Sequence record: MW822008.1 | Reading direction: 5' to 3' (one strand) | Length of the DNA: 64,000 bases | DNA from: Escherichia phage BF17 | Shown: positions 4,358 through 44,668 of the stretch, piece by piece | Position numbering within the stretch: the first letter of the stretch is position 1 | Layout of the letters: every line of letters begins with the position of its first letter | The notes under the pieces: generated by a model | Database searches by the model: none | Told to the model about the DNA's origin: nothing | What the model saw: the letters and a program-made list of their open reading frames with translations, nothing else | Program-made: the position numbers and the translations under genes

Positions 4358-4556
4358 AGACGTTTCATTTTGACAGGCCGCTGGAGGGGGTCAAAAAAAT
4401 TTCCGCTGAAAAACATGCTAAGGTATATGTTTAATATAAAGTTTTATATTGTGTTTTTTCAGAGTACAGTTCATGTTTCTTGAAACAAAAAATACCCCGC
4501 CGCCGAACGTTCTCCTTATATTGGAGTTTACCTTATTAATTATAGTAGAGATTAAG

Positions 4557-4934
4557 ATGGAAATAAAATATAATGAATTTTGTGCAAGGACATGGATGTA
4601 CACTGGTGAGTTAGTTACGCACTCTAACTTATACAAGGGTGATTTAAACTACGCTAGGGACAAGATTTTAAAGTACTGGAATGCTGACTTTTATTTGATG
4701 GATTTTAGTACTGGGTTTAGGGGTAAAGCAACCGAGATGTTGGACTATACAGTACTTGATGATTCTGCACTGTTTCAGGCGGCATTAGTATTTGATAAGA
4801 AGTACATCTGTACATTAGAAGAGATGATTGAATTACAGCGTAGAATTAAATGTATTCACAGGGAATGTATAGATATCTGGTGCAGTACTGGTGAAGATGA
4901 TTTTTGTAATCATTTCAATCTAGGGGAAGTGTGA
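4557..4934 (+). CDS. hypothetical protein, FQ-motif paralog family
   Basis: Track ORF 4449..4934; in-frame ATG 4557 after GC-rich leader; motif ALFQAALVFDKKY. Confidence 0.5.
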   Translation: MEIKYNEFCARTWMYTGELVTHSNLYKGDLNYARDKILKYWNADFYLMDFSTGFRGKATEMLDYTVLDDSALFQAALVFDKKYICTLEEMIELQRRIKCIHRECIDIWCSTGEDDFCNHFNLGEV

Positions 4935-5095
4935 TGGAATTTGATTTTTTAATATCAGTACATTCTTTTAAGCACAGTTATCAGTACTTTTGTAATTTAA
5001 ACAAAGGTGATTTGATTATGGATACAGATACAGAGGCTGTATACAGTTCTAATATTCTGTACAAATTCAGTACTAATCTGAAGGAGATTTTATGA
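4934..5095 (+). CDS. truncated paralog (N-terminal duplicate of the 5463 gene), 53 aa
   Basis: Untracked ORF; first ~27 aa near-identical to start of 5463..5819; stop overlaps next ATG. Confidence 0.4.
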   Translation: MEFDFLISVHSFKHSYQYFCNLNKGDLIMDTDTEAVYSSNILYKFSTNLKEIL

Positions 5096-5463
5096 AAAAA
5101 GAAATTAGAATTCAATTCGGTATGAGGAAAAGAGAGGTCATCTGTACACTGAATCATGCGGTCGTGGAAAGCCTTGGTGGTGCATTACAAAAATTCTCCC
5201 ATTTTGTTCTTGTACTATATGAAAATGGGTCTTTTAAAATCTTCACATATGATGATTCAAAAAATTACCGTAATGATTTTGTAAATCTGACAGTACTGTC
5301 AGAAGAGGAATTCTTTCAGGAAAGTACTGTCTGGAATTTACCAGGAGCACCAATTGAATACGTCCGTGCTACACAGGCAGAAATGATCAAAGTAATGCAG
5401 AACTATCCAGAAGATTATATGACTAAGTTTCCTGAATCTATTTATGTAGAGGTTGAGTACTGA
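5092..5463 (+). CDS. hypothetical protein, FQ-motif paralog family
   Basis: Motif EEFFQESTVWN. Confidence 0.6.
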   Translation: MKKEIRIQFGMRKREVICTLNHAVVESLGGALQKFSHFVLVLYENGSFKIFTYDDSKNYRNDFVNLTVLSEEEFFQESTVWNLPGAPIEYVRATQAEMIKVMQNYPEDYMTKFPESIYVEVEY

Positions 5464-5819
5464 TGGAATTTGATTTTTTAATATCAGTACATACTTTCAA
5501 GCACAGTTATCAGTACTTTTGTAATTTAAACAAAGGTGATTTAATGCACAGTGCAAATGAGTATATTCATTACACTCAGGGTAAATTTACATTCATTGAT
5601 TACAGTTCATTACAGTATCCACACCAAGATATGCCGGACTATACATTAATGGATACCGCAGAACTATTCCAAGAATCATTAGTATTTGATAAGAAGTACT
5701 TGTGTACATTTGAAGAAGTTATTGCAATACAAAATGAAATGAAAGAGTATGCTGCTTTGCATAAACCCAATGCAAGTATTAATCAAGAATACAAATTCAA
5801 TTTAGGAATTCAAGAATGA
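5463..5819 (+). CDS. hypothetical protein, FQ-motif paralog family
   Basis: Motif ELFQESLVFDKKY. Confidence 0.65.
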   Translation: MEFDFLISVHTFKHSYQYFCNLNKGDLMHSANEYIHYTQGKFTFIDYSSLQYPHQDMPDYTLMDTAELFQESLVFDKKYLCTFEEVIAIQNEMKEYAALHKPNASINQEYKFNLGIQE

Positions 5820-6175
5820 CATATGATTATTCTATGTACTATTATAAGTTACCTAAAGGATGGGACTTGTGCTGTAATCTTATTAAGGGCGACTCGGAAC
5901 ATGAGTTGAGTTTATATATGCATTACAAAGATTCTTGTTTTAAATTTATTCATGTATCACATGACGACTATGACTATGAATCTGAGAGTCTTATAGATTA
6001 TACAGTACTGGACGATGGTGAACTATTTCAGGCTGCATTAGTGTTTGATAAGAATAAGTACTCCTGTACATTTGAAGAAATGGTTTCTTTGCAAAATGAA
6101 ATGAAGAGATTTGAAAAAGAAAACGTATTTAATCCATCCCCATCAAGAACGAATAATTATTATTTCAATATATGA
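5816..6175 (+). CDS. hypothetical protein, FQ-motif paralog family
   Basis: Motif ELFQAALVFDKNKY. Confidence 0.65.
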   Translation: MTYDYSMYYYKLPKGWDLCCNLIKGDSEHELSLYMHYKDSCFKFIHVSHDDYDYESESLIDYTVLDDGELFQAALVFDKNKYSCTFEEMVSLQNEMKRFEKENVFNPSPSRTNNYYFNI

Positions 6176-6184
6176 GATTATAAA

Positions 6185-6676
6185 ATGACATTACAGAGTT
6201 CATTGGAAAAAGCAAAGAAGATTCATGAGTACATGAATATGGCAAAAGAAGGTTCAGTTTACGGTGTTTTCAAAGACACAAGTACTCAATATTATGTACC
6301 GGATAACCTCCTTTATAATGACTGCTCAGATACAGAAACGTGCGTACTGGATACAGAAACGTGCATACTAGATACCGACCCTAATGATTATGAATGCTTC
6401 ATTAATATGCATAATGAGTACATGGTCTATATTAATGATACAGATACCATCAACAGTACTGACAGCGATTCCAATGACATTATAATTCCGAGTGAAGTAC
6501 TGGAAGGTCCGTGGGATAGTGAAGAGTATTACTTCCAACAAAGTACTGTATATGATAATGAAGTACTTGATGTTATTATAATTATGTGGTACTTTAAAAG
6601 TATTGGTTCTGGGAACTTCTATTTCGATTACAAATACGTAAAGAAAACTGTAGATAACGGTATTAACAGGGGTTGA
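6185..6676 (+). CDS. hypothetical protein, FQ-motif paralog family
   Basis: Motif EEYYFQQSTVYDNEVLDVIIIMWYF. Confidence 0.7.
   Translation: MTLQSSLEKAKKIHEYMNMAKEGSVYGVFKDTSTQYYVPDNLLYNDCSDTETCVLDTETCILDTDPNDYECFINMHNEYMVYINDTDTINSTDSDSNDIIIPSEVLEGPWDSEEYYFQQSTVYDNEVLDVIIIMWYFKSIGSGNFYFDYKYVKKTVDNGINRG
6329..6379 (+). repeat. 21-bp tandem repeat inside CDS
   Basis: gatacagaaacgtgcgtactg x2.4, encodes DTETCVLDTETCILDTD. Confidence 0.6.
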
Positions 6677-6677
6677 A

Positions 6678-7148
6678 ATGAGTTTAGAAAGAGCATTAGA
6701 GATTGCGAAGTTAATTGATTTATGCAGCAAAGAAATTGTAGCAAATTGTCTTAATGGATATCTATTCAAGGAAGGTAAATCATATTGTCGAATGAGATAC
6801 GATGACAGTAGTGAGTACATTCACATGTATGAAGAAAACTTAGATTCTTCTGAAACAACACTCAATGGGTGTGATGTTAATTTGGAAGATAATTACATGT
6901 ACTTCTGTCGTGATGCTGATATTTTAATACAAGATTCTGACATTATATCTGGTGCAGCAGAGAAACATCTTCCGTATTCAGTACTGGATAATGACTGGGG
7001 AAGTGAAGAGTACTACTTCCAGCAGAATACTATCTACGAGGAAGATGTACTTGACAAGCTTGTCATTCTGTGGTACTTTAATAATACAGATTGTCCTAGC
7101 TTCTATTTGGACTTGGATCTACTACGAGTTATTAAAGAGGATATATGA
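6678..7148 (+). CDS. hypothetical protein, FQ-motif paralog family
   Basis: Motif EEYYFQQNTIYEEDVL. Confidence 0.7.
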   Translation: MSLERALEIAKLIDLCSKEIVANCLNGYLFKEGKSYCRMRYDDSSEYIHMYEENLDSSETTLNGCDVNLEDNYMYFCRDADILIQDSDIISGAAEKHLPYSVLDNDWGSEEYYFQQNTIYEEDVLDKLVILWYFNNTDCPSFYLDLDLLRVIKEDI

Positions 7149-7588
7149 GTTTAGCAAGTGCACTTGAACTAGCACACAGAATACATCACTTCCACGATAA
7201 CATAAAAAGTGGGTTCTATGGTGATAAAGTAAGTGCATTTGGTGATGAGTATTATCTATCAGGTATAAAGACATACTCTGATGATATTTTACTTATGGGA
7301 CAGGATAAAGACAATACTATACAGTACTCTTCATGTAGTCAATATACTAATTTTTTTGTATATATTCCAGGTACTAAGATTACTTTTGACACAACAAATA
7401 CACCTGTTGACTTCGGGGTACTTGATGGCCAGTGGGGTACTGAAGAGTATTACTTCCAACAGAGTCTCATTTTTAACCAAGAAATTCTTGATTCCTTGGT
7501 TGTGTTGTGGTACTTTAAGGAATTGAATTTTGAACCATTCTTTCTTGACTGGGGAGCATGTGAATATTTAAGTACAGGGGATTTGTAA
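7145..7588 (+). CDS. hypothetical protein, FQ-motif paralog family
   Basis: Motif EEYYFQQSLIFNQEIL. Confidence 0.7.
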   Translation: MSLASALELAHRIHHFHDNIKSGFYGDKVSAFGDEYYLSGIKTYSDDILLMGQDKDNTIQYSSCSQYTNFFVYIPGTKITFDTTNTPVDFGVLDGQWGTEEYYFQQSLIFNQEILDSLVVLWYFKELNFEPFFLDWGACEYLSTGDL

Positions 7589-8076
7589 TGTCATTACAAA
7601 GTGCATTGAAAGAAGCAAAGAAGATTCATGAGTACATGATTATGGTACAGGAAGGTTCAGTACCAGGTGTATATAAAACATCTGATACTGAATTTTTTGT
7701 AAAAGACCGTGACGATTATGACGAGTCCGAGATATGTGCAGAAACATTAGTACTGCACACTGATACTGGTGACAGTGATAACTGTGAATATCATATGTAC
7801 AATCAGTACATTAGTTATTGTCGTAATGAAGATATTACCATCTACAACACAGATAGTGATGCTGATGACACTATCATTCCTTATTCAGTACTGGAAGGAC
7901 CGTGGGATAGTGAAGAATATTACTTCCAGAATAGTACGTTGTACAATGAAGAAGAATTAGATGTTATTGTAATTATGTGGTATTTCAAAAGTATTGACTC
8001 CAGTAGTTTCTATTTTGATTATGAATATGTAGAGAATACTGTAGGAGAAGGTAATGTCATTACAAAGTGCTCTTGA
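7588..8076 (+). CDS. hypothetical protein, FQ-motif paralog family
   Basis: Motif EEYYFQNSTLYNEEEL. Confidence 0.7.
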   Translation: MSLQSALKEAKKIHEYMIMVQEGSVPGVYKTSDTEFFVKDRDDYDESEICAETLVLHTDTGDSDNCEYHMYNQYISYCRNEDITIYNTDSDADDTIIPYSVLEGPWDSEEYYFQNSTLYNEEELDVIVIMWYFKSIDSSSFYFDYEYVENTVGEGNVITKCS

Positions 8077-8506
8077 AAAAGCAAAAGAACTACATGGATA
8101 CTTTGACGATATAAAGGCAGGAAAGTTCAAAGAAGTGTACAAAGCCGAGAACGGCAACTACTACAAGGATGAAATGTATAATAACTCCGTTGGTGTAAGG
8201 GTTATTCTTGGGTTGAATTCCAATAGTCCTATATCGTTTTCTGAATACAATAGAGATGCAGAATTTATTAGTTATGTTGAAAATGGTAGCATTCGTTTTA
8301 TTAATCGCAAAAAACCATTAATTTTGAATTATGAAGTACTGGAAGGTCCGTGGGATAGTGAAGAGTATTACTTCCAAAACAGTACTGTTTACGATGATGA
8401 AGTACTTGAAGCATTAGTTATTATGTGGTACTTAAAGAGTGTTAACTGTCCTCGATTTTATTTGGATTTCGAAGAACTTCGTAAAGATCCAGAAGGTATA
8501 GAATGA
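8054..8506 (+). CDS. hypothetical protein, FQ-motif paralog family
   Basis: GGAG RBS; motif EEYYFQNSTVYDDEVL. Confidence 0.7.
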   Translation: MSLQSALEKAKELHGYFDDIKAGKFKEVYKAENGNYYKDEMYNNSVGVRVILGLNSNSPISFSEYNRDAEFISYVENGSIRFINRKKPLILNYEVLEGPWDSEEYYFQNSTVYDDEVLEALVIMWYLKSVNCPRFYLDFEELRKDPEGIE

Positions 8507-11617: not shown

Positions 11618-11980
11618 ATGAACACATTAAGTATTACATACTATACAACTAAAAAATTAGTTACTTGTTTAATATCATTGAAGACAAATCATGATGATAT
11701 GTTTGATATGGCTGCATATGAATTAGAATTATCAGAAGATGGCTTCAAGAGCTATGAAGTATATAGCTATGTTCGTGAAGATGTAATTGACACTACACTA
11801 ATGCAAGAGGATGAGTTATTCCAAGAAAGTTTAGTATGGGATAATAAGTACGATTGTAACTTTGATTTCTTATGTTTAATCCAGAAAGAAATGAAAAGAA
11901 TCTTTGATAATTATCCAGTGAAGAGATTGAGTACTGGACCGGAGCAGTACAGGAGAATTTTATTCCGTTATGAAGACTGA
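11618..11980 (+). CDS. hypothetical protein, FQ-motif paralog family
   Basis: Motif DELFQESLVWDNKY. Confidence 0.6.
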   Translation: MNTLSITYYTTKKLVTCLISLKTNHDDMFDMAAYELELSEDGFKSYEVYSYVREDVIDTTLMQEDELFQESLVWDNKYDCNFDFLCLIQKEMKRIFDNYPVKRLSTGPEQYRRILFRYED

Positions 11981-12305
11981 ATTAGTGAAAGTAATGTACG
12001 CTACTCATATTAAACTACTACTTGTGAAATTTGATTATAATAAAAAACATAATGATTTCTATACTTTAATTCGTGATGAAAATACATTCTCCTTGCGATG
12101 CAACAATATACCGTTGAAGATAAATGATTTTACTTCACTTGACGAGGGTGAATTATTTCAAGAATCATTAGTTTTTAATAGTAATATAAAAATTGATATA
12201 GAAGTTATTAAAAAATACCAGATTTTATTGAACAAAATTATGAATTGTTATCCATGTGAAATAGGTGGTCATATGCAGTTCAAATCAAAAATGTATGAAT
12301 TATGA
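11970..12305 (+). CDS. hypothetical protein, FQ-motif paralog family
   Basis: Motif GELFQESLVFNSN. Confidence 0.6.
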   Translation: MKTELVKVMYATHIKLLLVKFDYNKKHNDFYTLIRDENTFSLRCNNIPLKINDFTSLDEGELFQESLVFNSNIKIDIEVIKKYQILLNKIMNCYPCEIGGHMQFKSKMYEL

Positions 12306-12908: not shown

Positions 12909-13385
12909 ATGTCCAAAGACCTATCATTTAGCAATGCACAAAAAATAGCAAAAGACATTATCAGGGTTTATAAATTCCTTGCGAATGTTACTGAAGATTT
13001 TTTCGTGGGGGAACATAAAGTTATTAAACGAAATGGATACCTTTCCTTTATGGATGGGTTACTCTATAGTTCAGATGAATCAACTTGTAGCATTAGAGTA
13101 CTTGATGAAGTACCAAGTGGTGATTTTATTTCATACCATTTTCCAAGTTCAGATAATTTCAAATACTACAATCATCTTCTTATAAATGAAGCATTTGATA
13201 CGATTGTAATTAACACTGAAGAAGAGTTCTTCCAGTACAGTACTGTGTATCCAGAGAGGATTGTTTTCAGTTCAGTGATTTACACTGCCCTTAAAAATGA
13301 ACTAAATTCCGATAGTGATCATTACTACTTGGACCTGAACAATGTCGATTGTATTATTGAGTACATGGAGAAAAATGGTTTATGA
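12909..13385 (+). CDS. hypothetical protein, FQ-motif paralog family
   Basis: Motif EEEFFQYSTVYPERI. Confidence 0.65.
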   Translation: MSKDLSFSNAQKIAKDIIRVYKFLANVTEDFFVGEHKVIKRNGYLSFMDGLLYSSDESTCSIRVLDEVPSGDFISYHFPSSDNFKYYNHLLINEAFDTIVINTEEEFFQYSTVYPERIVFSSVIYTALKNELNSDSDHYYLDLNNVDCIIEYMEKNGL

Positions 13386-13876
13386 TTACTACAGAATATG
13401 ATTACTATGGTGTTTTAGAATTTACAGAAAATATCTATCGCATTGCAAAGGAGTTCAGAAGTCCTAAGCCTTTTGGTGGTATGTTTCAATACGATGAGTT
13501 CAGTTCATCTAAAGGAAGACTAGCATTTACTAATGTTAGAGGTAATCAAATCTACGCGGAGTACTTTGATGATAATGACTTTCATTACAAAGCCGAATAC
13601 ATTTCATATTGCCCTGGGTCTGATTTGAAGATTAATATTGATACCTTTAGAGATTCAGTGCTTGTCCCTTATAGTGAGTTAGTTTTCATGACAGAAGAAA
13701 TGTACTTTCAAGAGTCTTGTATTCATGATGTAAAAGTACTTAATGCTATGTTATTTTATGGTGCACTACTTCATCATTACAAATACAAACAACGATTCTT
13801 TTTAGATTTAGTAGTATACTATAAATGCGTGGATTATTTGAATGCAAAATACGACAACAATTCAGTACATGACTGA
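13382..13876 (+). CDS. hypothetical protein, FQ-motif paralog family
   Basis: Motif EEMYFQESCIHDVKVL. Confidence 0.65.
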   Translation: MITTEYDYYGVLEFTENIYRIAKEFRSPKPFGGMFQYDEFSSSKGRLAFTNVRGNQIYAEYFDDNDFHYKAEYISYCPGSDLKINIDTFRDSVLVPYSELVFMTEEMYFQESCIHDVKVLNAMLFYGALLHHYKYKQRFFLDLVVYYKCVDYLNAKYDNNSVHD

Positions 13877-14204
13877 TGGTACTGAATACTTTGTTTCAAG
13901 ATATGTAATCAACCACAACCATTATGTAACCTATATTCCAGAGTACAATCAATTTTATATCCAGATTTATCAAAATAATGGAAAGATAAATGATATATAT
14001 TCAGAAATAAAAATCCCTGATTATAGTACTTTATCAGAAGAGGAATTATTTCAGGAGAGCACTATCAGTACTGAAGATGTGTACGAAATAATGGAATACC
14101 AGAAGGTACTTAAACATTTTCATGAAGCAAATGATATACAAATCGATATTGTTAAACCGTGGTGTTACAATACATATGAGGTAAATTATGTTAGAAATGA
14201 TTAA
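13842..14204 (+). CDS. hypothetical protein, FQ-motif paralog family
   Basis: Motif EELFQESTISTEDV; alternative ATG at 13869. Confidence 0.55.
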   Translation: MQNTTTIQYMTDGTEYFVSRYVINHNHYVTYIPEYNQFYIQIYQNNGKINDIYSEIKIPDYSTLSEEELFQESTISTEDVYEIMEYQKVLKHFHEANDIQIDIVKPWCYNTYEVNYVRND

Positions 14205-14601
14205 AATTATGCAACGCTGTCTTGTTGATCAACACGGGGTATATGGATATCGTTTAAGTGCTCCTATTGACAAAAATAAAACAACCTATGTAAGCTATAA
14301 TGCTGTACAAGGATTTGATATATTCATTAGTACTAATTATCAAATCAAACAAGCGAAAGATGTGTCTATAATGACCCCTGATGAGTTATTTCAGTACAGC
14401 TTAGTCTTTCCTACATGTATCGATTTACAACGTCTAGGAGCGATACAGAAGGTTTTACGCGAACATAAAGTACAACCCAATAAAGTCACACACATTCCAG
14501 AAACAATCTTCAAAACCATAGAAGTAGAAACTCCTGATTATATGTTAAGTGATGATGAGTACTACGAGAAACACTTCCCTGGTAAAGTTTGGAGAGACTA
14601 A
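14188..14601 (+). CDS. hypothetical protein, FQ-motif paralog family
   Basis: Motif DELFQYSLVFPTC. Confidence 0.6.
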   Translation: MLEMIKIMQRCLVDQHGVYGYRLSAPIDKNKTTYVSYNAVQGFDIFISTNYQIKQAKDVSIMTPDELFQYSLVFPTCIDLQRLGAIQKVLREHKVQPNKVTHIPETIFKTIEVETPDYMLSDDEYYEKHFPGKVWRD

Positions 14602-15083
14602 TGAACCGAAAGTACAGAGAAACTATGAAGTTCGCTAAGGAGTGTTTAGAGACAGTTGATTTCATTTTCGATAACAAAGACTCACTGGGTCATCACTTCG
14701 TAATTACAAAGAAAGAAGATAAGAGATACAAGTGTGAAAGATTAGGATACAGTATTGAGTTCTCCTTAATGATTGATGGAATGATAAACTCCTTATATGA
14801 ATGTGGTAAGACTGATTACCTTTCATTTAGATCATGGAGTGAAGGTATCATGTTCTTGAGAACAAATGGAGTTTTATATCCGTTTCTTGATGATTTATCA
14901 GAAGAAAGTTACTTTCAAAATAGTTTAATTTACACAGAAAAAGAACTCAAAATGCTATTCATTATGTCGTACTTTAAAAAGTACTGCAAATTTAATACAT
15001 TATCTTTTGAGATTTCTGCAATGAAAGTATTCATTAAAAATGTAAAAGAATTAAAGAGGGCTTTTAATGTACATAGAAAATGA
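14589..15083 (+). CDS. hypothetical protein, FQ-motif paralog family
   Basis: Motif EESYFQNSLIYTEKEL. Confidence 0.65.
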   Translation: MERLMNRKYRETMKFAKECLETVDFIFDNKDSLGHHFVITKKEDKRYKCERLGYSIEFSLMIDGMINSLYECGKTDYLSFRSWSEGIMFLRTNGVLYPFLDDLSEESYFQNSLIYTEKELKMLFIMSYFKKYCKFNTLSFEISAMKVFIKNVKELKRAFNVHRK

Positions 15084-38622: not shown

Positions 38623-39555
38623 ATGCCAACTATCACACTAACAGTTGGATTGCCTGGGTGTGGTAAAACTACATGGGCAGTGCAAGAGATTAAAAACGCC
38701 AAATCCAAGACTATCAACATCAACCGTGATGATATTCGTGAATCTATGGCTGGGTCACATGATGCTTACAAATTCAACGATGCTAATGAGCAGTACGTAA
38801 CTAATTTACAGTTCAGTGCAGCAAATTCAGCAGCAGAGAATGGTTGGAACATCATCATATCCGATACAAACCTTAAACAACATTTCCGTAATCTCTGGAA
38901 AGTATGGGCTAAAGATAATGGTTATGATTACAAAGAAAAGAACTTCTATGATGATTTTGTACCTAATGAAGACCGTGGTGCAGATGTTCATGAATTCTTT
39001 AAGATTAAAGAGTTCGTAAAACTTTGTAAGAAATATAACCTCCAGCGTGAGCGTTCAGTACAAGATGATATCATTGACACAATGGCAGATACGTACTATT
39101 ATAGTAAGGCATTACACATTGGTTACTATGGTAATTCACGCGAAGCTGCTATCATCGTTGATATCGATGGAACTCTTGCTCATAAATGGGGTCGTAATCC
39201 TTACGATGAAAGTACTGTTCTTCAGGATACACCTGATGAAGAAGTTATTTTGTCTATTATCGCTGAAGCAGTTTTTCATAAACGCAAGATTATCGTCATG
39301 AGTGGGCGTACTGAAGGGTGTCGTGCTGATACCGAACAGTGGCTTAAGAATTGGGGTGTTCCTTACGATGCATTGTTTATGCGAGATATCGATGATAAAC
39401 GTCCTGATGATGTTGTAAAATTCGACCTGTACATGAAAAATGTGGTTGATCATTACGATGTTAAAAAGGTATATGATGACCGCGATCAAGTTGTATTCAT
39501 GTGGCGTAAGCTACTTGGGTTGAAAGTTTTCCAAGTGGCTGAAGGAAATTTCTAA
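38623..39555 (+). CDS. pseT: polynucleotide 5'-kinase / 3'-phosphatase
   Basis: Walker A GLPGCGKTT; NINRDD; phosphatase DxDGT (IVDIDGTLA); aligns along its length with T4 Pnk. Confidence 0.93.
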   Translation: MPTITLTVGLPGCGKTTWAVQEIKNAKSKTININRDDIRESMAGSHDAYKFNDANEQYVTNLQFSAANSAAENGWNIIISDTNLKQHFRNLWKVWAKDNGYDYKEKNFYDDFVPNEDRGADVHEFFKIKEFVKLCKKYNLQRERSVQDDIIDTMADTYYYSKALHIGYYGNSREAAIIVDIDGTLAHKWGRNPYDESTVLQDTPDEEVILSIIAEAVFHKRKIIVMSGRTEGCRADTEQWLKNWGVPYDALFMRDIDDKRPDDVVKFDLYMKNVVDHYDVKKVYDDRDQVVFMWRKLLGLKVFQVAEGNF

Positions 39556-39560
39556 TACAA

Positions 39561-39591
39561 AAGGGATCATATATTGGTCCCTTTTTCTTTT
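39561..39591 (+). terminator. intrinsic terminator
   Basis: aagggatca...tggtccctt hairpin followed by TTTTTCTTTT. Confidence 0.6.
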
Positions 39592-40292: not shown

Positions 40293-40587
40293 ATATTATC
40301 ATAATTTATTCGATTACATAAAACTAATAGATGATCTTTCTTTTGAATTTCTCAGTACTGAAAAAGTTCTTGAACCTCTCTATTATGATTGTATTAGTTC
40401 ACTATGTTTAGATGAAAAAGAGATATTAGCAAACAACTTACCATCCACGGTCTGTACAATCAATGGTTCCAAGGCATTAGTGTGCGAGGTTAATTTTCAT
40501 AAATCACTTAATACAATTGTTTACAAGTTCGATAACACTTGGGTAAATCATGTAACCAGTAATATTAAATCTGTGAGATTTTTATGA
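40285..40587 (+). CDS. hypothetical protein
   Basis: Track ORF 40228..40587; ATG 40285 six nt after AAGGA. Confidence 0.5.
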   Translation: MNEYYHNLFDYIKLIDDLSFEFLSTEKVLEPLYYDCISSLCLDEKEILANNLPSTVCTINGSKALVCEVNFHKSLNTIVYKFDNTWVNHVTSNIKSVRFL

Positions 40588-40880
40588 ATATAAAAAAATT
40601 ATTTGAACAAGTAAATTTATTGTACTGGTGTTCAGACGGTTCAGATAAGGAATATAGTGAAGTTTATTTAGAACTGTTTAGAACTGAAATTCATCAAATT
40701 CGAAGATACCTAATTGATAACAAAACTAAAGTACAAGTAAGATACCATAACGGTACTTTAAAGAATGGTGTAATTATTGGATTGATAGTTACACGAATGT
40801 CTAATAATATTAAAGTTGCAGTTAGATTAATGACTGATGATGGTGTCTACACAATAGAAGCTAGTGAGATTATATATTAA
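40584..40880 (+). CDS. hypothetical small protein, family C
   Basis: 98 aa; ATGA overlap. Confidence 0.5.
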   Translation: MNIKKLFEQVNLLYWCSDGSDKEYSEVYLELFRTEIHQIRRYLIDNKTKVQVRYHNGTLKNGVIIGLIVTRMSNNIKVAVRLMTDDGVYTIEASEIIY

Positions 40881-41186
40881 ATGGATATACAAACATTCAA
40901 TAAACTTAAGTACTATGATGATGGTTTTGCATTAATAATTAACGAACTTGATGGAATACCATACGAATATCATAATCAAGTAATGAAGATAATAAAATGT
41001 ATATGTGAAGAATTAAAAAGTATATTTAAAAATGAATATGTTTATGATTTAGGTAATAATAGCAAAAAACTATACATAAAGAAATTCTGGGGAACGCATT
41101 GCGGTTTGATGGTCGATTTAGGTTTAAGTTTAGACGATAATTCTGAATCATGTTCATTATATATAGATGAAATGCGAATATCATGA
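40881..41186 (+). CDS. hypothetical protein
   Basis: 101 aa track ORF. Confidence 0.5.
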   Translation: MDIQTFNKLKYYDDGFALIINELDGIPYEYHNQVMKIIKCICEELKSIFKNEYVYDLGNNSKKLYIKKFWGTHCGLMVDLGLSLDDNSESCSLYIDEMRIS

Positions 41187-41226
41187 GACGTATCAGAATT
41201 CGGTGATATAATTTGATTACATCACC
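41184..41226 (+). promoter_or_regulatory. early promoter -10 embedded in inverted repeat
   Basis: TGaTATAAT (-10 at 41207-41212) between ggtgat (41202-41207) and atcacc (41221-41226). Confidence 0.4.
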
Positions 41227-41243
41227 AATAGGGAGAAGTTGAA

Positions 41244-41570
41244 GTGAATGGTTCGTTTTTAACAATATTAGAAAAGACAACCGAGATGCTTTCTAGCTCG
41301 TTAATGCAGATTTTCAGTACTAATAATTTATACAATACCCAGGTGTTAGATTCAATTAATAATAACTATGTGGTAAGTATATCTGATGAAATATGTCCAT
41401 TTAATGCGTATTCAATTTATAGTGTAGAAGAGTTTCATATATCCGAGATTCGATGTGGTTTTGGTGCTTGGTTAGTTCTAAATGAACGTTCAGGGTTGTC
41501 TTTATACATCGAAGAAGTTAGTAAATTTATATACAAAGGAGTAGAATATGTTAACCCCAATTATTCTTAG
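41244..41570 (+). CDS. hypothetical protein
   Basis: GTG start 8 nt after GGGAG. Confidence 0.45.
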   Translation: MNGSFLTILEKTTEMLSSSLMQIFSTNNLYNTQVLDSINNNYVVSISDEICPFNAYSIYSVEEFHISEIRCGFGAWLVLNERSGLSLYIEEVSKFIYKGVEYVNPNYS

Positions 41571-42201
41571 CAGTGCATATGTAATCGGTATTATTATTTC
41601 TGGTATGCTTGCATATAACTATAACCGAAGTGTTCTAGGTTATGTAGTACTTGGTACAGTACTAAGTCCAGTGATTGCCATTGGTCTTCTTGTTATGCTA
41701 GGTGAGAAAAATACAAGCTTCTTTATTACTAAAGAACTTGATAAAATCACTCCAGCACCAGAAACAGTTATTCCAGAAGTTAAAGAAGAAGTTAAAGAAG
41801 AAGTTAAAGAAGAAGTTAAAGAAGTTGAAGTTCAAATGCAAGTTAAAGTGTATAATACACTTGAAGAAACTGATCCTAAAGTTGTAGTGAATGTAGTTCC
41901 AGTCGTTGAAGATGTGAAACCAAAAGCTCCTAAAGTACAGAAAAATACTAAAACTGCAAAGAAAGCTCGTTACACTAAAGGTAAGAACAAAGGTAAATCT
42001 AAGGATGAACCACAACTAGGTGTTCATGACCATACTGCACAAATTGCAACGGCAGCGACCGCAGCAGCAATCGTAACATCACCAATCTACAACAATGATG
42101 ATTACAGTGATTATAGCCGTCACAGCAGTTCTTCCTCTGATTCTTGTTCCTATGATAGCTCTAGTTCTGATTCAAGTTCATCGTCTGGAAGTTGTGATTA
42201 A
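41548..42201 (+). CDS. membrane protein with (EVKE)x4 repeat and Ser-rich C-terminus
   Basis: Two N-terminal hydrophobic helices; EVKE repeats; C-terminal SSSSSDSCSYDSSSSDSSSSSGSCD. Confidence 0.55.
   Translation: MLTPIILSSAYVIGIIISGMLAYNYNRSVLGYVVLGTVLSPVIAIGLLVMLGEKNTSFFITKELDKITPAPETVIPEVKEEVKEEVKEEVKEVEVQMQVKVYNTLEETDPKVVVNVVPVVEDVKPKAPKVQKNTKTAKKARYTKGKNKGKSKDEPQLGVHDHTAQIATAATAAAIVTSPIYNNDDYSDYSRHSSSSSDSCSYDSSSSDSSSSSGSCD
41776..41823 (+). repeat. 12-bp tandem repeat x4 inside CDS
   Basis: gaagttaaagaa x4 in frame, encodes (EVKE)4. Confidence 0.8.
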
Positions 42202-42530
42202 TGTCAATGAAACCACTAATTCAACATAATATTTTTTATAGGTCATTATTCAAAATTCAAGATGATTTTTATCAGACGTTGAGTAATGATCTTATAGGTA
42301 AAACTGTACGATATTCGGAACAATACATCAAACGTATGACAAGTGAGTATATTGACCCTGAATACGAATACGACATTGAACACATTAATCCCAATACTAG
42401 AATGAAAATCATTGAGATATTTAAGAATGGGAGAACTATAGGTGCTGAAATTGAGTACTTGAATTGTGATTGTTACATAGATACCGAGTTAAGTTTGGAT
42501 TATCTTGTTTTAGTGGATGATGAGGAATAA
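42201..42530 (+). CDS. hypothetical small protein, family C
   Basis: LSNDLIGKTVRYSEQY core. Confidence 0.5.
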   Translation: MSMKPLIQHNIFYRSLFKIQDDFYQTLSNDLIGKTVRYSEQYIKRMTSEYIDPEYEYDIEHINPNTRMKIIEIFKNGRTIGAEIEYLNCDCYIDTELSLDYLVLVDDEE

Positions 42531-42532
42531 TT

Positions 42533-42748
42533 ATGATAACATTTTTTGCAATATATGGTTTTGTAGCATTTGTTACATTTATAACCAACTTTCTAGTACT
42601 TAATTGGGGTTGTTTTAAAGATGAAATCATGATTATCATGAATCTCCAAACAGCAGCACTGATGGCTATTATTTGGCCTGTAACATTAGTATATATTTTT
42701 ATTTCACTTACCCAAGATATTATTAACAAATATAAGAGAAAGAAATAA
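42533..42748 (+). CDS. small membrane protein
   Basis: 71 aa, two hydrophobic helices, KRKK tail. Confidence 0.5.
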   Translation: MITFFAIYGFVAFVTFITNFLVLNWGCFKDEIMIIMNLQTAALMAIIWPVTLVYIFISLTQDIINKYKRKK

Positions 42749-42999
42749 TGTTCAACACTGACTTATCACATTTGCGATATCTTATGTCTTTGGCTGATGA
42801 TTTTATAAATGATCTGAAGCCAAAATATATTGGTCAAGAAGTACGATTAATAAACTCCAGAGGGTATGGAAAGTATATTATTACTGATATGTATATTAGT
42901 GGTGGTGAATGGCGTTTTAAAATTAATACTTATCTTAAAGATGGTTCTTTTGCTGGAACACAAGTTACTAAACACACTAATATTATATGGTTGGAGTAA
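42748..42999 (+). CDS. hypothetical small protein, family C
   Basis: DLKPKYIGQEVRLINS core. Confidence 0.5.
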   Translation: MFNTDLSHLRYLMSLADDFINDLKPKYIGQEVRLINSRGYGKYIITDMYISGGEWRFKINTYLKDGSFAGTQVTKHTNIIWLE

Positions 43000-43001
43000 T
43001 A

Positions 43002-43745
43002 ATGAAACACTTCTTAGAAGTAACTGTACCTGATGATAAAGATTTATACATTGTAGGTGATTTGCATGGTAATGGTAAACTATGGGATGCTACAGTGAAA
43101 GAATTTGGTATTACACACAATGATTATGTTTTCAGTGTAGGTGATATTATCGACCGTGGAGAACAAAATTCAAAGCTCCTTTTTGAATTTTTGTTCGGAG
43201 AAAATCGTTACATGATTGCGGGTAATCATGAGATGATGTGCGTTGATTCGGAAACACTTCGAGATTGGTATCATTGTTGGATAAGTAATGGTGGTGATAA
43301 ATTCCTTGATGAAGTTGGAGGAACAGGCATTCAATTCTTTCGTCAGTACTTAAAGGATCTCCCTATGATTATCCAAATCAATCACCGAGGATTGAAGATT
43401 GGGTTAGTTCATGCTGGAGTTCCGTTGGAATATACAACATGGGAACGATTTGTTAATGGGACAAAATCACTTAGTGCTGATATAATTGATAAGTGCTTGT
43501 GGGATAGAAAAACATTCGATTATTGTAGAACTAATAATACATATTATGCACCTAAGTTAGATGGAGTGCATTGTGTCTTTAGTGGACATACAGCAGTTAC
43601 AGACCCACTCATTTACGGTAATCGCATTTGGATTGATAGTCAGTTCTTGACGGGTGACTTAACTCTCGCTACTCCACAAAGTGGTGGGATGAGATACTTA
43701 CGTAAAGAAAAAGATGAGTACTCATTCAATCGTTTCAAAAGGTAA
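43002..43745 (+). CDS. Ser/Thr protein phosphatase (PPP-family metallophosphatase)
   Basis: Track ORF 42987..43745; ATG 43002 after GGAG; motifs GDLHG, GDIIDRG, GNHE. Confidence 0.85.
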   Translation: MKHFLEVTVPDDKDLYIVGDLHGNGKLWDATVKEFGITHNDYVFSVGDIIDRGEQNSKLLFEFLFGENRYMIAGNHEMMCVDSETLRDWYHCWISNGGDKFLDEVGGTGIQFFRQYLKDLPMIIQINHRGLKIGLVHAGVPLEYTTWERFVNGTKSLSADIIDKCLWDRKTFDYCRTNNTYYAPKLDGVHCVFSGHTAVTDPLIYGNRIWIDSQFLTGDLTLATPQSGGMRYLRKEKDEYSFNRFKR

Positions 43746-43750
43746 TAATT

Positions 43751-44020
43751 ATGCATGATGTAGTTAAAAAATATTTGAATGATAGATATATTATGAAAAA
43801 ATCTATTAATTCTATCCTAAAAGACCATGCAAATCAAATACGTGAGATTCTATCAAATAAACTTATTGGTTGTTCAGTTGAGTTCAACTACAAAAAGAAT
43901 GTCGTGAAGGTTGGAGTTATTAAACGTGTAGTTGCTGTTTATGACCAAGATGTATATGTTGAAATAGAATATGATGGTAAATTATCACAATTAAGTACTG
44001 AAGATTTAACATTTTTATAA
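43751..44020 (+). CDS. hypothetical small protein, family C
   Basis: LSNKLIGCSVEFNY core. Confidence 0.5.
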   Translation: MHDVVKKYLNDRYIMKKSINSILKDHANQIREILSNKLIGCSVEFNYKKNVVKVGVIKRVVAVYDQDVYVEIEYDGKLSQLSTEDLTFL

Positions 44021-44030
44021 GGAAATAGAA

Positions 44031-44258
44031 ATGAAAGTAATTCAAGTTATGGTAGAAAAATACCAAACTGAAGATGGTCGTATTTTTGATTCAGCTAAAC
44101 AAGCTGAACACCATGAACGTATTATTTCTGGTGCACGTAAAGTATGTCCTACATGTAATGGAACACAACAAGTACCGTCAGAAGATTACCGCAGCTTTTA
44201 TGCTTGTCCACACTGTGATGGGAAAGGCTACGTAGAAAAACAAGAGGTATGGAAATGA
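44031..44258 (+). CDS. zinc-ribbon small protein
   Basis: CPTCNG ... CPHCDG. Confidence 0.5.
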   Translation: MKVIQVMVEKYQTEDGRIFDSAKQAEHHERIISGARKVCPTCNGTQQVPSEDYRSFYACPHCDGKGYVEKQEVWK

Positions 44259-44668
44259 AATTGTATTGCTTAACTAATATGTACTGCCAAGGTGTCCAAG
44301 CTGGTATTCAAGCATTCCATGCTGGTGTTAAACTAATTAAAGAATATGAAGGTACTGCTTTCAGTACTATTATTGATGAATGGTACTATGAACACGAAAC
44401 TATTGTAGTACTAAATGCTGGTGGACATGATAAGTTAAATTCTTATTATAACAACCTTAGCAAACAGGGAAAAGTTCCGTTTGCCAAATTCAATGAAGCT
44501 GGATTGAATGATGCTATTACCTGTGTAGCAGTACTGTGTACGTCTGAAATGATTGAAGACATGGCTGTTATGCGTATGAATCTTCCTGCTGGTGATCAAC
44601 TAATGCAAGTAAAATATGGTGCATTGTTTGACACATTAAAAGCAATCAGCACAATGAGGACAATTTGA
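44249..44668 (+). CDS. hypothetical protein
   Basis: 139 aa track ORF. Confidence 0.5.
   Translation: MEMKLYCLTNMYCQGVQAGIQAFHAGVKLIKEYEGTAFSTIIDEWYYEHETIVVLNAGGHDKLNSYYNNLSKQGKVPFAKFNEAGLNDAITCVAVLCTSEMIEDMAVMRMNLPAGDQLMQVKYGALFDTLKAISTMRTI

Follow-up and report, generated by a model that had tools for sequence, protein, structure and literature searches.

The open reading frame at 41548-42201 of the window (the whole 64-kb stretch of phage DNA that was analysed) is a genuine gene under purifying selection, and its product is best explained as an early, apparently non-virion membrane tether, built from an anchor, a flexible spacer and interaction motifs; we hold this explanation with about as much doubt as confidence. 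A hairpin of two helices would anchor the protein in the host inner membrane, and the remaining ~165 residues are predicted to be intrinsically disordered and are arranged in charge blocks, namely an acidic spacer, the motif KKARYTKGKNKGK, an Ala/Thr helix and a Ser/Asp/Cys tail. The spacer would act as a flexible connector in which changes of length are tolerated, and the working ends would be the basic motif and the acidic tail. A polyanion, either nucleic acid or anionic lipid, might be the ligand of the basic block; the tail might either bind a partner or fold back onto that block. The features discussed below are as follows:

41183-41212, plus strand: sigma-70-type promoter-like site, with -35 ATGAGA, an 18-nt spacer and a TG-extended -10 TATAAT at 41207-41212, located in the short gap that precedes the gp450-gp451 pair
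41244-41570, plus strand: preceding gene, orthologous to 121Q gp450 (PHROG 31862, unknown function) and sharing its final 23 nt with the beginning of 41548-42201
41535-41541, plus strand: Shine-Dalgarno sequence AAAGGAG, read from the sequence, 6 nt upstream of ATG 41548
41548-42201, plus strand: coding sequence from ATG 41548 to TAA 42199-42201, 217 aa, 23.5 kDa, pI 5.5; orthologue of 121Q gp451, phAPEC6 gp366c and PBECO4 AGC34797, PHROG 29057
41554-41700, plus strand: two-helix transmembrane (TM) hairpin; TM1 aa 3-25, loop NYNRS, TM2 aa 30-51 with a conserved mid-helix S-P
41698-42015, minus strand: antisense 105-aa ORF, a non-coding by-product of sense-strand codon composition; product Phe/Asn-rich
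41746-41952, plus strand: spacer, aa 67-135, 71% Pro/Glu/Val/Lys, predicted disordered, pLDDT ~40
41776-41823, plus strand: in-frame length-polymorphic minisatellite, four exact copies of GAAGTTAAAGAA encoding EVKE x4, aa 77-92
41899-41997, plus strand: basic block of net charge +10, aa 118-150, with the invariant motif KKARYTKGKNKGK at its end
41959-41997, plus strand: motif KKARYTKGKNKGK, aa 138-150, columns K138 to K150 invariant
42031-42072, plus strand: Ala/Thr-rich, weakly hydrophobic helix IATAATAAAIVT, aa 162-175, a low-confidence AlphaFold2 helix
42082-42198, plus strand: acidic tail rich in Ser/Asp/Cys, with 19 Ser in aa 179-217, a net charge of -6 and GSCD as its last residues

A conserved gene of the Asteriusvirus phages

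Judged by its sequence, the window phage is an Asteriusvirus (a PBECO4/121Q-like jumbo coliphage), and about 20 Asteriusvirus genomes match the region at 96-99% identity. The PHROG 29057 profile matches over the full length of the protein (E = 2.9e-138, 459 bits), in two stretches that break at the repeat, the best of them pairing aa 85-217 with profile positions 77-209 of 209. Members of this family (121Q gp451, PBECO4 AGC34797 and phAPEC6 gp366c, each a 'hypothetical protein') agree with the window in start codon, neighbours and architecture, and apart from the repeat they are 92-99% identical to the window protein; those examined have one to three EVKE units, against four here. The case for a real gene rests on whole-gene dN/dS values of 0.12 (against 121Q), 0.19 (UE-S1), 0.27 (fEgEco12) and 0.19 (JNE01), on a strong Shine-Dalgarno sequence, and on the identical start codon annotated in about 20 records of orthologues.

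The preliminary description had set aside the antisense 105-aa ORF as an artefact of the repeat. An artefact it is, but the repeat is only part of the cause, since it supplies just 16 of the 105 codons. The ORF is the codon-aligned antisense frame: sense codons 52-156 include no TTA, CTA or TCA, and its bounds are the nearest sense codons of these kinds, 51 and 157. Because it is open by codon composition, its ends shift between orthologues and purifying selection acts in the sense frame, it is rejected as a gene.

None of the matching PHROGs has an annotated function (all are labelled 'unknown function'), and the window protein has no significant family match in Pfam, NCBIfam, PADLOC or PDB sequence profiles. 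Sub-threshold matches to mS39 PPR, GAGA_bind, Coilin_N, Mgp-operon protein 3 and CARF 4TM were rejected as composition-driven. The GenBank name 'ribosome biogenesis protein Nop10' given to the fEgEco12 orthologue is unsupported by the Pfam, NCBIfam, PADLOC and PDB scans, and most likely stems from the Lys-rich low-complexity region. The diverged orthologues P0008-P0010 match Pfam DUF7206 (PF23836) weakly, in the part from the basic block through the tail (19.2 bits, E = 0.002). The gathering score of this family, 25.6 bits, is not reached (P0008 is best at 19.2, and A4 scores 11.3), the window protein gives no match at E<=1, and the match may be purely compositional. A literature search found no mention of DUF7206 and no transcriptome or functional data on the gp451-type gene. 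The exact 217-aa sequence is absent from a collection of ~15 billion proteins; the rest of the 64-kb window contains no paralogue of the gene, of its hairpin or of its Ser-rich tail, and no copy of the gene was found in complete E. coli genomes.

Expression and genomic neighbourhood

The gene is probably early and transcribed by host RNA polymerase, and its product is apparently non-virion. This argument is based on the conserved promoter-like site with its TG-extended -10 upstream, and on the 62-protein virion proteome of phAPEC6, which does not include the orthologue gp366 (PMC7247149), absence from one virion proteome being weak evidence for a small membrane protein. The putative promoter scores 10/12 plus the TG extension, and promoter-like sites across the region are at chance level (47 found vs 44.2 +/- 6.8 expected). 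Phages 121Q, UE-S1 and fEgEco12 (the last ~73% identical) share its core, GGTGATATAAT, unchanged, and JNE01 has TTGACA-N17-TATAAT at the equivalent position. The 23-nt overlap between the gp450 and gp451 genes suggests that the two may be translationally coupled.

As in PHROG 29057 genomes, the gene order is PNKP, small ORFs, the gp451-type gene, a NinI-like phosphatase and DNA ligase, with the PNKP gene 2 kb upstream of 41548-42201. Three small ORFs lie between the gp451-type gene and the Metallophos/NinI-like phosphatase gene in Asteriusvirus, the latter at 42987-43745 here; the two are adjacent in Klebsiella phage RCIP0023, and the same order is found in a metagenomic relative. Both PNKP upstream and the NinI-like phosphatase downstream are kept in the Klebsiella jumbo phage.

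The membrane hairpin and its orientation

The proposal of a membrane protein with two N-terminal hydrophobic helices is borne out by hydropathy and by structure prediction. The Kyte-Doolittle 19-residue mean peaks at 2.03 (aa 5-23) and 2.57 (aa 33-51), and AlphaFold2 places helices at residues 3-25 and 29-54 with pLDDT 62-75. The AlphaFold2 model was built from just 10 sequences and offers no usable fold (overall pLDDT 48.5), with values below 50, and hence predicted disorder, for nearly all of residues 68-217. Profiles of two PHROGs match both helices together with the NR(S/N) loop and the S-P motif (PHROG 9201, E = 1.1e-7, aa 6-55; PHROG 25625, E = 2.5e-6, aa 10-55). The hairpin is a recurrent 2-TM module: an exhaustive profile search over 1.84 billion representatives detected it in at least 24 further proteins, whose C-termini are unrelated and include zinc ribbons and a SHOCT-like segment, but gave no protein with the C-terminal module alone in common. 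Cardiolipin synthase has an N-terminal TM pair that bears some resemblance to the hairpin relatives, too weak to be accepted (19.5 bits vs cut-offs of 290 and 787).

We tentatively favour a cytoplasmic location of the working ends, because the Asteriusvirus gp451 family has three K/R in the 15 residues after TM2 (with one in the loop and none at the N-terminus), and because zinc ribbons directly follow TM2 in the relatives. The opposite arrangement, with a periplasmic tail (N-out, loop-in and C-out, like leader peptidase) in an early envelope-spanning or envelope-modifying protein, seems to us rather unlikely. One example of such a protein would be a superinfection-exclusion factor, in which the spacer would cross the periplasm like the (Glu-Pro)n(Lys-Pro)n rod of TonB and the two Cys, C199 and C216, would be disulfide-bonded. 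Exclusion is a frequent role of small inner-membrane proteins that phages make early (T4 Imm, P22 SieA), and several features of the sequences would suit this arrangement. The charges of the hairpin-only relatives fit it, with two to four K/R in a 7-residue loop and N-termini that lack positive charge and are acidic or uncharged; the spacer passes from acidic Pro/Glu to basic Lys/Pro, a trend that the JNE01 lineage shows best (EPEPEVVE...EPVKPVPPVFPE...KKHK); and the number of Cys is exactly two in most lineages, both of them within SCD, as would be expected for a disulfide in an exported protein. The gp451 family itself, however, has three K/R in the flank after TM2 and one in the loop, the block of net charge +10 would need to be exported, and zinc ribbons immediately after TM2, as in the relatives, are usual for cytoplasmic domains. 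In addition, the Cys are absent from P0007 and reduced to one in P0006, and no match was found to Pfam Imm_superinfect, to TonB_C or to an annotated exclusion PHROG. For superinfection immunity of the T4 Imm type (PF14373), there was no Pfam match with the whole protein at E<=1 or with aa 1-66 at E<=10, and no annotated PHROG.

The EVKE repeat and the spacer

The repeat had been described as four exact 12-bp units encoding EVKE at 41776-41823, a reading confirmed by Tandem Repeats Finder (41775-41824, period 12, 4.2 copies, 100% matches, score 100). It is the sole exact tandem repeat (unit 7-30 bp, at least three copies) in the 64-kb window, and none of this kind appeared in 100 first-order Markov shuffles. 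The accompanying prediction, that the array is slippage-prone and may differ in copy number between isolates, also proved correct: 1, 2, 3 or 4 copies occur among 20 near-identical genomes, with one, two (the usual number) or three in the 19 close isolates and four in the window alone. Copy number varies even among genomes with identical 1.4-kb flanks. Phages G17, Sharanji, ECO103 and E9.1 have an identical 40-site SNP haplotype and carry 3, 3, 2 and 2 copies, respectively, and the window is one SNP away from this haplotype and yet has four. One-copy alleles are found on two SNP backgrounds, as are three-copy alleles, and the CRJP21 allele contains an additional 9-bp unit; at least six independent copy-number changes are required among the ~20 genomes. 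All 20 alleles are full length and in frame (units of 12 bp, with the single 9-bp variant). Scans of IMG/VR and metagenomes added just two further 2-copy alleles, and diverged orthologues have two imperfect units, or none that is recognisable, with everything else kept. The locus is a coding VNTR (minisatellite) polymorphism, in which an exact array differs in copy number between otherwise near-identical genomes. Replication slippage would add or remove EVKE units, with four residues (~1.4 nm of contour length) gained or lost from the spacer at each step.

The repeat is located in the least constrained segment of the protein, that of highest dN/dS. The spacer is acidic to about aa 117, beyond which it overlaps the start of the basic block, and the acidic part (aa 56-117) evolves fastest, with dN/dS of 0.42-0.44 vs 0.05-0.13 in the basic block. 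Independent 3-aa indels (EVx/EEV) have arisen in the spacer in the JNE01 and A4 lineages. The range of one to four repeat copies, the 9-bp unit of CRJP21, these indels and the high dN/dS argue that the spacer tolerates changes in length.

One might suppose that the repeat is an adaptive contingency locus, with copy number tuning the reach or affinity of the protein and selection maintaining rapid switching between alleles. The repeated changes of copy number among genomes that barely differ elsewhere, the exactness of the array at the DNA level and a four-copy allele unrecorded among ~15 billion proteins would be in keeping with this idea, which we nevertheless consider improbable. A phase-variable contingency locus works by a frame shift or a change in promoter spacing that turns expression on or off, and a 12-bp unit within the coding sequence, being always in frame, can do neither. 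Moreover, the range is just one to four copies with two strongly predominant, diverged orthologues dispense with a recognisable array and keep all else, the array sits where dN/dS is highest, and twelve residues amount to ~7% of the ~165-residue disordered tail. The gene cannot be switched off by the repeat, and the copy-number variation is therefore probably near-neutral. It provides a clean natural case of a coding minisatellite outpacing its flanks in a lytic jumbo phage, and EVKE copy number is a possible strain-typing marker for PBECO4-like therapeutic phages; otherwise the product of 41548-42201 is one of several hundred hypothetical proteins in Asteriusvirus-type genomes, and the gene alone opens no long-standing question.

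The basic block and the Ser/Asp tail

The Lys-rich block after the repeat has 12 K/R (aa 118-150), and the Ser-rich C-terminus contains the string SSSSSDSCSYDSSSSDSSSSSGSCD exactly as first quoted. Constraint on the protein is strongest in the basic KKARYTKGKNKGK motif and in the Ser/Asp tail with its terminal SCD: dN/dS is 0.05 for the basic block vs fEgEco12, and 0.02 for the tail vs UE-S1 (8 synonymous vs 1 non-synonymous change), with the tail Ser encoded by a mix of six codons. The helix at aa 162-175 is kept as TAATTAAI in most lineages, and the tail end SYDSSS...S(G/S)SCD is kept in A4 and in the metagenomic and Klebsiella phage relatives. Although identity is low, A4, the metagenomic relative and Klebsiella phage RCIP0023 all keep the charge-block architecture as a whole. 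A point against disorder throughout is a region with a beta-strand-like alternating pattern (VEVQMQVKVY...KVVVNVVPVV), which may fold on oligomerisation. The separation of a dispensable spacer from the strongly constrained hairpin, KKARYTKGKNKGK and Ser/Asp/Cys tail defines targets for mutagenesis. The preliminary description, which proposed no function, had been silent on the repeat segment as the least constrained part and on the Ser/Asp tail as the most constrained.

The Ser/Asp tail could also be a phospho-acceptor or metal-binding module functionally coupled to the downstream NinI-like Ser/Thr phosphatase in a phage-encoded membrane switch. This idea is compatible with the tether model, and we give it little credence. 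Acidic S-x-x-D/S clusters are typical acidophilic kinase sites, the tail is very strongly constrained and keeps its Ser although their codons are mixed, and the order of the gp451-type and phosphatase genes is kept in Asteriusvirus, the metagenomic relative and RCIP0023. Gene order in jumbo phages is conserved over tens of kilobases, however, so that adjacency is little informative. No kinase has been identified, and the phosphatase gene lies within a nucleic-acid repair and translation-related cluster (RNA ligase, PNKP, PTH2-like, DNA ligase), so its product may act on quite different substrates. More doubtful still is the notion of a new kind of membrane-anchored regulatory module, encoded by the phage and composed of the basic motif together with the Ser/Asp/Cys tail. 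It might, for example, be an electrostatic switch that depends on phosphoserine or metal and is reset by the NinI-like phosphatase; such a switch could hold nucleic acid or a host factor reversibly at the inner membrane early in infection, with EVKE copy number tuning its reach.

A lysis protein, either a class II-like holin or an inner-membrane spanin, is very unlikely indeed: two N-terminal TM helices before a charged hydrophilic C-terminus would suit it, as would the PNKP gene upstream (the T4 spanin genes pseT.2 and pseT.3 adjoin the polynucleotide kinase gene), but there is no holin or spanin match in Pfam or PHROG; holins, at about 70-150 aa, are much smaller than this protein, whose 217 aa include a disordered tail of 165; the inner-membrane subunit of a spanin has a single TM and, in the periplasm, a coiled-coil domain, whereas AlphaFold2 predicts two TM and no coiled coil here; neither the downstream genes nor the two embedded ORFs (41702-41887, 42095-42229) encode the Cys-containing lipobox (lipoprotein signal) of a spanin partner; the 10 flanking ORFs tested (40584-44668) include no endolysin that would mark a lysis cassette; and the conserved host-type promoter suggests early expression.

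Comparison with known systems

If the protein is a membrane tether, its parts can be compared with several known systems. The anchor has its closest counterparts in the small 2-TM proteins of PHROG 9201 and 25625 (e.g. RB49p211 of Krischvirus RB49) and in bacterial and metagenomic relatives, with 43% identity over aa 11-52 and the common motif A-x-x-(K/N)-R-(S/N)-x-x-G-(Y/W)...L-S-x-x-x-S-P-(L/V)-I...L-L-x-L-G. These relatives differ in their C-termini, which are short, helical, zinc-ribbon or SHOCT-like and in no case a charge-block disordered tail.

The spacer can be likened to the proline-rich spacer of TonB and the PEVK segment of titin, which serve as working analogues: it is likewise of low complexity, dominated by Pro/Glu/Val/Lys, acidic and then basic, predicted to be extended or disordered, and tolerant of length changes, and membrane anchoring is a further point in common with TonB. 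There is no sequence homology to either system, however, and the window protein has neither a TonB C-terminal domain (no TonB_C match) nor the single SHLS-type signal-anchor TM, having instead the two-TM hairpin. The likeness to TonB is thus limited to the composition and order of the spacer, and a mechanical role would be hypothetical.

For the working ends, the working analogues come from DNA-binding proteins, to none of which was homology detected. The p16.7 protein of phage phi29 differs in its single TM, its coiled coil and the folded domain with which it binds DNA; the putative likeness is that such membrane DNA tethers combine an N-terminal anchor with a basic segment that could bind nucleic acid, as the window protein may do. 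In the C-terminus of T4 gp32 and in HMGB1, an acidic Ser-rich tail opposes a basic DNA-binding region, and the Ser/Asp tail of the window protein could similarly be an intramolecular competitor or a site for a partner.

A longer allele of a catalogued jumbo-phage protein

The ORF runs on the (+) strand from an ATG at 41548 to a TAA at 42199-42201, encodes 217 aa, and is preceded by a Shine-Dalgarno sequence (AAAGGAG, 6 nt before the ATG). Over 1.4 kb, the locus shares 96-99% identity with about 20 genomes of Asteriusvirus, coliphages and Salmonella phages with jumbo genomes of 310-373 kb (e.g. PBECO4, 121Q, phAPEC6, G17, Sharanji and SP27), and about 73% with a second phage group (fEgEco12, CMSTMSU and others). 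The protein, with orthologues in 121Q (gp451) and phAPEC6 (gp366c), belongs to PHROG 29057 (function unknown; E=2.9e-138). Orthologues are labelled "hypothetical protein" in every record, with the exception of fEgEco12 g194 (1849-2445 of the fEgEco12 record, L020), which GenBank labels "ribosome biogenesis protein Nop10". That label is unsupported by any family scan and seems to be a mis-annotation, for which the low-complexity, Lys-rich region is probably responsible.

Twelve relatives came out of a word-indexed search of 5.8 billion proteins. When 1.84 billion cluster representatives were searched exhaustively by profile, only five full-length relatives were found, together with 24 proteins that match the N-terminal hairpin alone. 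The remotest full-length members are in phage A4, one metagenomic contig and Klebsiella phage RCIP0023 (350 kb). A 209-aa protein with two EVKE copies is found on dozens of contigs; the 217-aa sequence, with four, was not found in a collection of 15 billion proteins. This jumbo-phage protein was already catalogued, though uncharacterised; the window ORF is a new allele of it and exceeds all others seen in length.

Protein architecture

The two N-terminal hydrophobic helices of the preliminary description are evident as Kyte-Doolittle peaks of 2.03 and 2.57, and the Lys-rich block (aa 118-150, net charge +10) and Ser-rich C-terminal tail, SSSSSDSCSYDSSSSDSSSSSGSCD, are as described there. An AlphaFold2 model built on a shallow alignment of 10 sequences has helices at 3-25 and 29-54 (pLDDT 62-75), a weak helix at 162-175, and pLDDT below 50 over nearly all residues 68-217. 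Krischvirus RB49p211 (114 aa) has the same hairpin motif (LAYNYNRSxxGY...LSPVI...LLxLGE), and so do small proteins that end in zinc ribbons, short helices or a SHOCT-like segment; the module is common to PHROG 9201 and PHROG 25625. C-terminal to the hairpin, the following block order is kept in all lineages:

Block 1: acidic spacer; aa 67-135, which extend into the basic block, are 71% Pro/Glu/Val/Lys
Block 2: basic block, whose C-terminal end, KKARYTKGKNKGK, is invariant in 10 aligned members
Block 3: Ala/Thr-rich helix (TAATTAAI), missing in one lineage
Block 4: Ser/Asp tail with terminal (G/S)SCD, mostly with two Cys

Phage A4, the Klebsiella phage and one further relative (P0014) have another Lys/Arg-rich block in place of KKARYTKGKNKGK. 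The protein as a whole is a membrane hairpin plus a tail that is predicted to be disordered and whose charge blocks are conserved.

Copy number of the EVKE repeat

41776-41823, (+): four in-frame copies of GAAGTTAAAGAA, encoding EVKE x4 (aa 77-92)

Tandem Repeats Finder reports this array at 41775-41824 (period 12, 4.2 copies, 100% matches), in agreement with the four exact 12-bp repeats originally noted. It is the sole exact tandem repeat (unit 7-30 bp, at least three copies) within the 64-kb window, and 100 Markov shuffles produced none.

Copy number had been predicted to vary among isolates, and it ranges from one to four over 19 close genomes and the window. One copy is present in SD-6_S16 and phAPEC6 (2/19), two in 13 of the 19 (including PBECO4, 121Q and SP27), three in G17, slurp01 and Sharanji (3/19), and four in the window only. 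CRJP21 has two copies and an additional 9-bp unit, GAAGTTAAA, encoding one EVK, and two more two-copy alleles are on an IMG/VR contig and a metagenome contig. G17, Sharanji, ECO103 and E9.1 do not differ at any of 40 SNP columns in the 1.4-kb alignment, yet have 3, 3, 2 and 2 copies, respectively; the window is one SNP site away from this haplotype. A common haplotype also unites phAPEC6 (one copy) and SHEFM2K (two copies), and slurp01 and SD-6_S16 are on other backgrounds. With copy numbers distributed over haplotypes in this way, at least six independent length changes are required, and the array therefore has a much higher mutation rate than the flanking sequence. Diverged orthologues carry two imperfect units (EVEEEVKE, EEQEELK, EVQEEPRE), and so two copies are likely the ancestral state.

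The reading frame is kept in all alleles. The variation is length polymorphism, not phase variation, and the array did not qualify as a phase-variable locus; it is a neat case of a coding minisatellite inside a disordered spacer. Downstream, the gp452 orthologue of SP27 (1278-1613 of the SP27 record, L008; 336 bp) is 6 bp longer than that of the window (42201-42530; 330 bp); this is a second length polymorphism in the gene cluster, also small and in frame.

Selective constraint and overlapping frames

Whole-gene dN/dS (Nei-Gojobori) is 0.12 vs 121Q, 0.19 vs UE-S1, 0.27 vs fEgEco12 and 0.19 vs JNE01, and this is a real gene under purifying selection. The acidic spacer (aa 56-117; dN/dS 0.42-0.44), where the hypervariable in-frame repeat is located, is the least constrained block. 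In the JNE01 and A4 lineages, 3-residue indels (EVx, EEV) separate spacers of 97-99%-identical sequences; the spacer is a general indel hotspot in which length changes are tolerated. The basic block is strongly constrained (0.05 vs fEgEco12), and the Ser/Asp/Cys tail is unusually so, being the most constrained segment (0.02 vs UE-S1; 8 synonymous changes, 1 non-synonymous). Six codons are used for the 18 Ser of the last 30 residues; unlike the EVKE array, then, the Ser run is not a DNA repeat but is preserved at the level of the protein.

Overlapping open frames in this gene include:

41698-42015, (-): 105-aa ORF in the codon-aligned antisense frame
42095-42229, (+): alternative-frame ORF of 44 aa, very hydrophobic, overlapping the Ser-rich tail and stop codon

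The antisense ORF was rejected as a gene. It is open because TTA, CTA and TCA are all missing from sense codons 52-156, and its Phe/Asn-rich product has ends that move among orthologues. It is an artefact, as had been proposed, but one of sense-strand codon composition; the repeat supplies only 16 of the 105 codons. This cause aside, the original observation and interpretation were correct and the key prediction, on copy number, is verified. The alternative-frame ORF most likely arises incidentally from the Ser codons.

Gene neighborhood and expression

This gene belongs to a densely packed array on one strand, in which overlaps are frequent; it overlaps gp450 upstream by 23 nt and gp452 downstream at TAATG.

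38623-39555: polynucleotide kinase-phosphatase (PNKP) gene, upstream border of the array
41183-41212, (+): TG-extended -10 promoter-like site, GGTGATATAAT (-10 at 41207-41212), in the only intergenic gap (57 bp) just upstream of the gp450/gp451 pair
42987-43745: NinI-like Ser/Thr phosphatase gene, downstream border of the array

The promoter-like site is identical in 121Q, UE-S1 and fEgEco12, although some of these are only about 73% identical overall, and in JNE01 the equivalent position is occupied by a consensus TTGACA-N17-TATAAT. This conservation points to early transcription by host polymerase, which we infer rather than observe because promoter-like sites across the region are no more frequent than chance. 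In phAPEC6, gp366 is not among the 62 proteins of the virion proteome (PMC7247149).

A metagenomic relative keeps the order of gp451-type gene and then phosphatase, as does Klebsiella phage RCIP0023, which has them side by side. Beyond the phosphatase (44031-44668, (+)) are a 75-aa DnaJ-CXXCXGXG/Anti-TRAP-like zinc-finger protein and, with a 10-nt overlap, a 139-aa PTH2-like peptidyl-tRNA hydrolase (Pfam 25.2 bits vs a cut-off of 23). With PNKP and the phosphatase (plus RNA ligase and DNA ligase in 121Q, the latter also downstream), these look like an RNA-repair or translation-rescue module. A terminator-like hairpin (39559-39585, (+); 11-bp stem, then T-run) lies directly 3' of the PNKP stop codon. 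Two genes downstream of the 217-aa ORF, a 71-aa ORF (42533-42748, (+)) encodes two hydrophobic helices, ends in KYKRKK and has no PHROG match at 1e-5; its fEgEco12 orthologue is annotated "membrane protein", and it is a second small membrane protein of the same transcription unit.

Elsewhere in the window, 4473-8506 and 11618-12305 (+) hold tandem arrays of paralogous genes: five of about 150 aa at 6185-8506 (28-56% identical, E down to 5e-56), and a family of about 120 aa at 4473-6175 and 11618-12305, to which ORFs at 13382-15083 are more weakly linked.

Possible role and comparison with known systems

The protein may be an early, non-virion membrane tether with cytoplasmic working ends, an overall picture to which we give roughly even odds, with less confidence in each specific step. 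The hairpin would be the membrane anchor, the spacer a flexible, length-tolerant connector, and the basic motif and Ser/Asp/Cys tail the working parts. With the tail in the cytoplasm, as favored, the basic block could bind a polyanion, and the acidic tail could bind a partner or fold back onto the basic block.

Topology is the main uncertainty. A periplasmic tail, as in an exclusion or envelope protein, would fit the paired Cys, the TonB-like order in the spacer, and the hairpin relatives with strongly positive loops and acidic N-termini. However, K/R counts in the gp451 family (3 after the second helix, 1 in the loop) favor N-in/C-in, and the zinc-ribbon fusions of the hairpin relatives agree. 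We consider a periplasmic exclusion or envelope protein unlikely. An adaptive contingency locus, with the EVKE repeat as its basis, is improbable, and much the same can be said of a phospho- or metal-switch coupled to the adjoining phosphatase, which would be compatible with a tether. A lysis protein is very improbable; the protein did not qualify as a holin or spanin, nor as a T4 Imm or TonB protein, and the match to DUF7206, given by diverged orthologues, is sub-threshold.

Some resemblances are matters of functional analogy, not homology: the spacer resembles the TonB and titin PEVK spacers, and the protein as a whole may be likened to anchored tethers of DNA, phi29 p16.7 among them.
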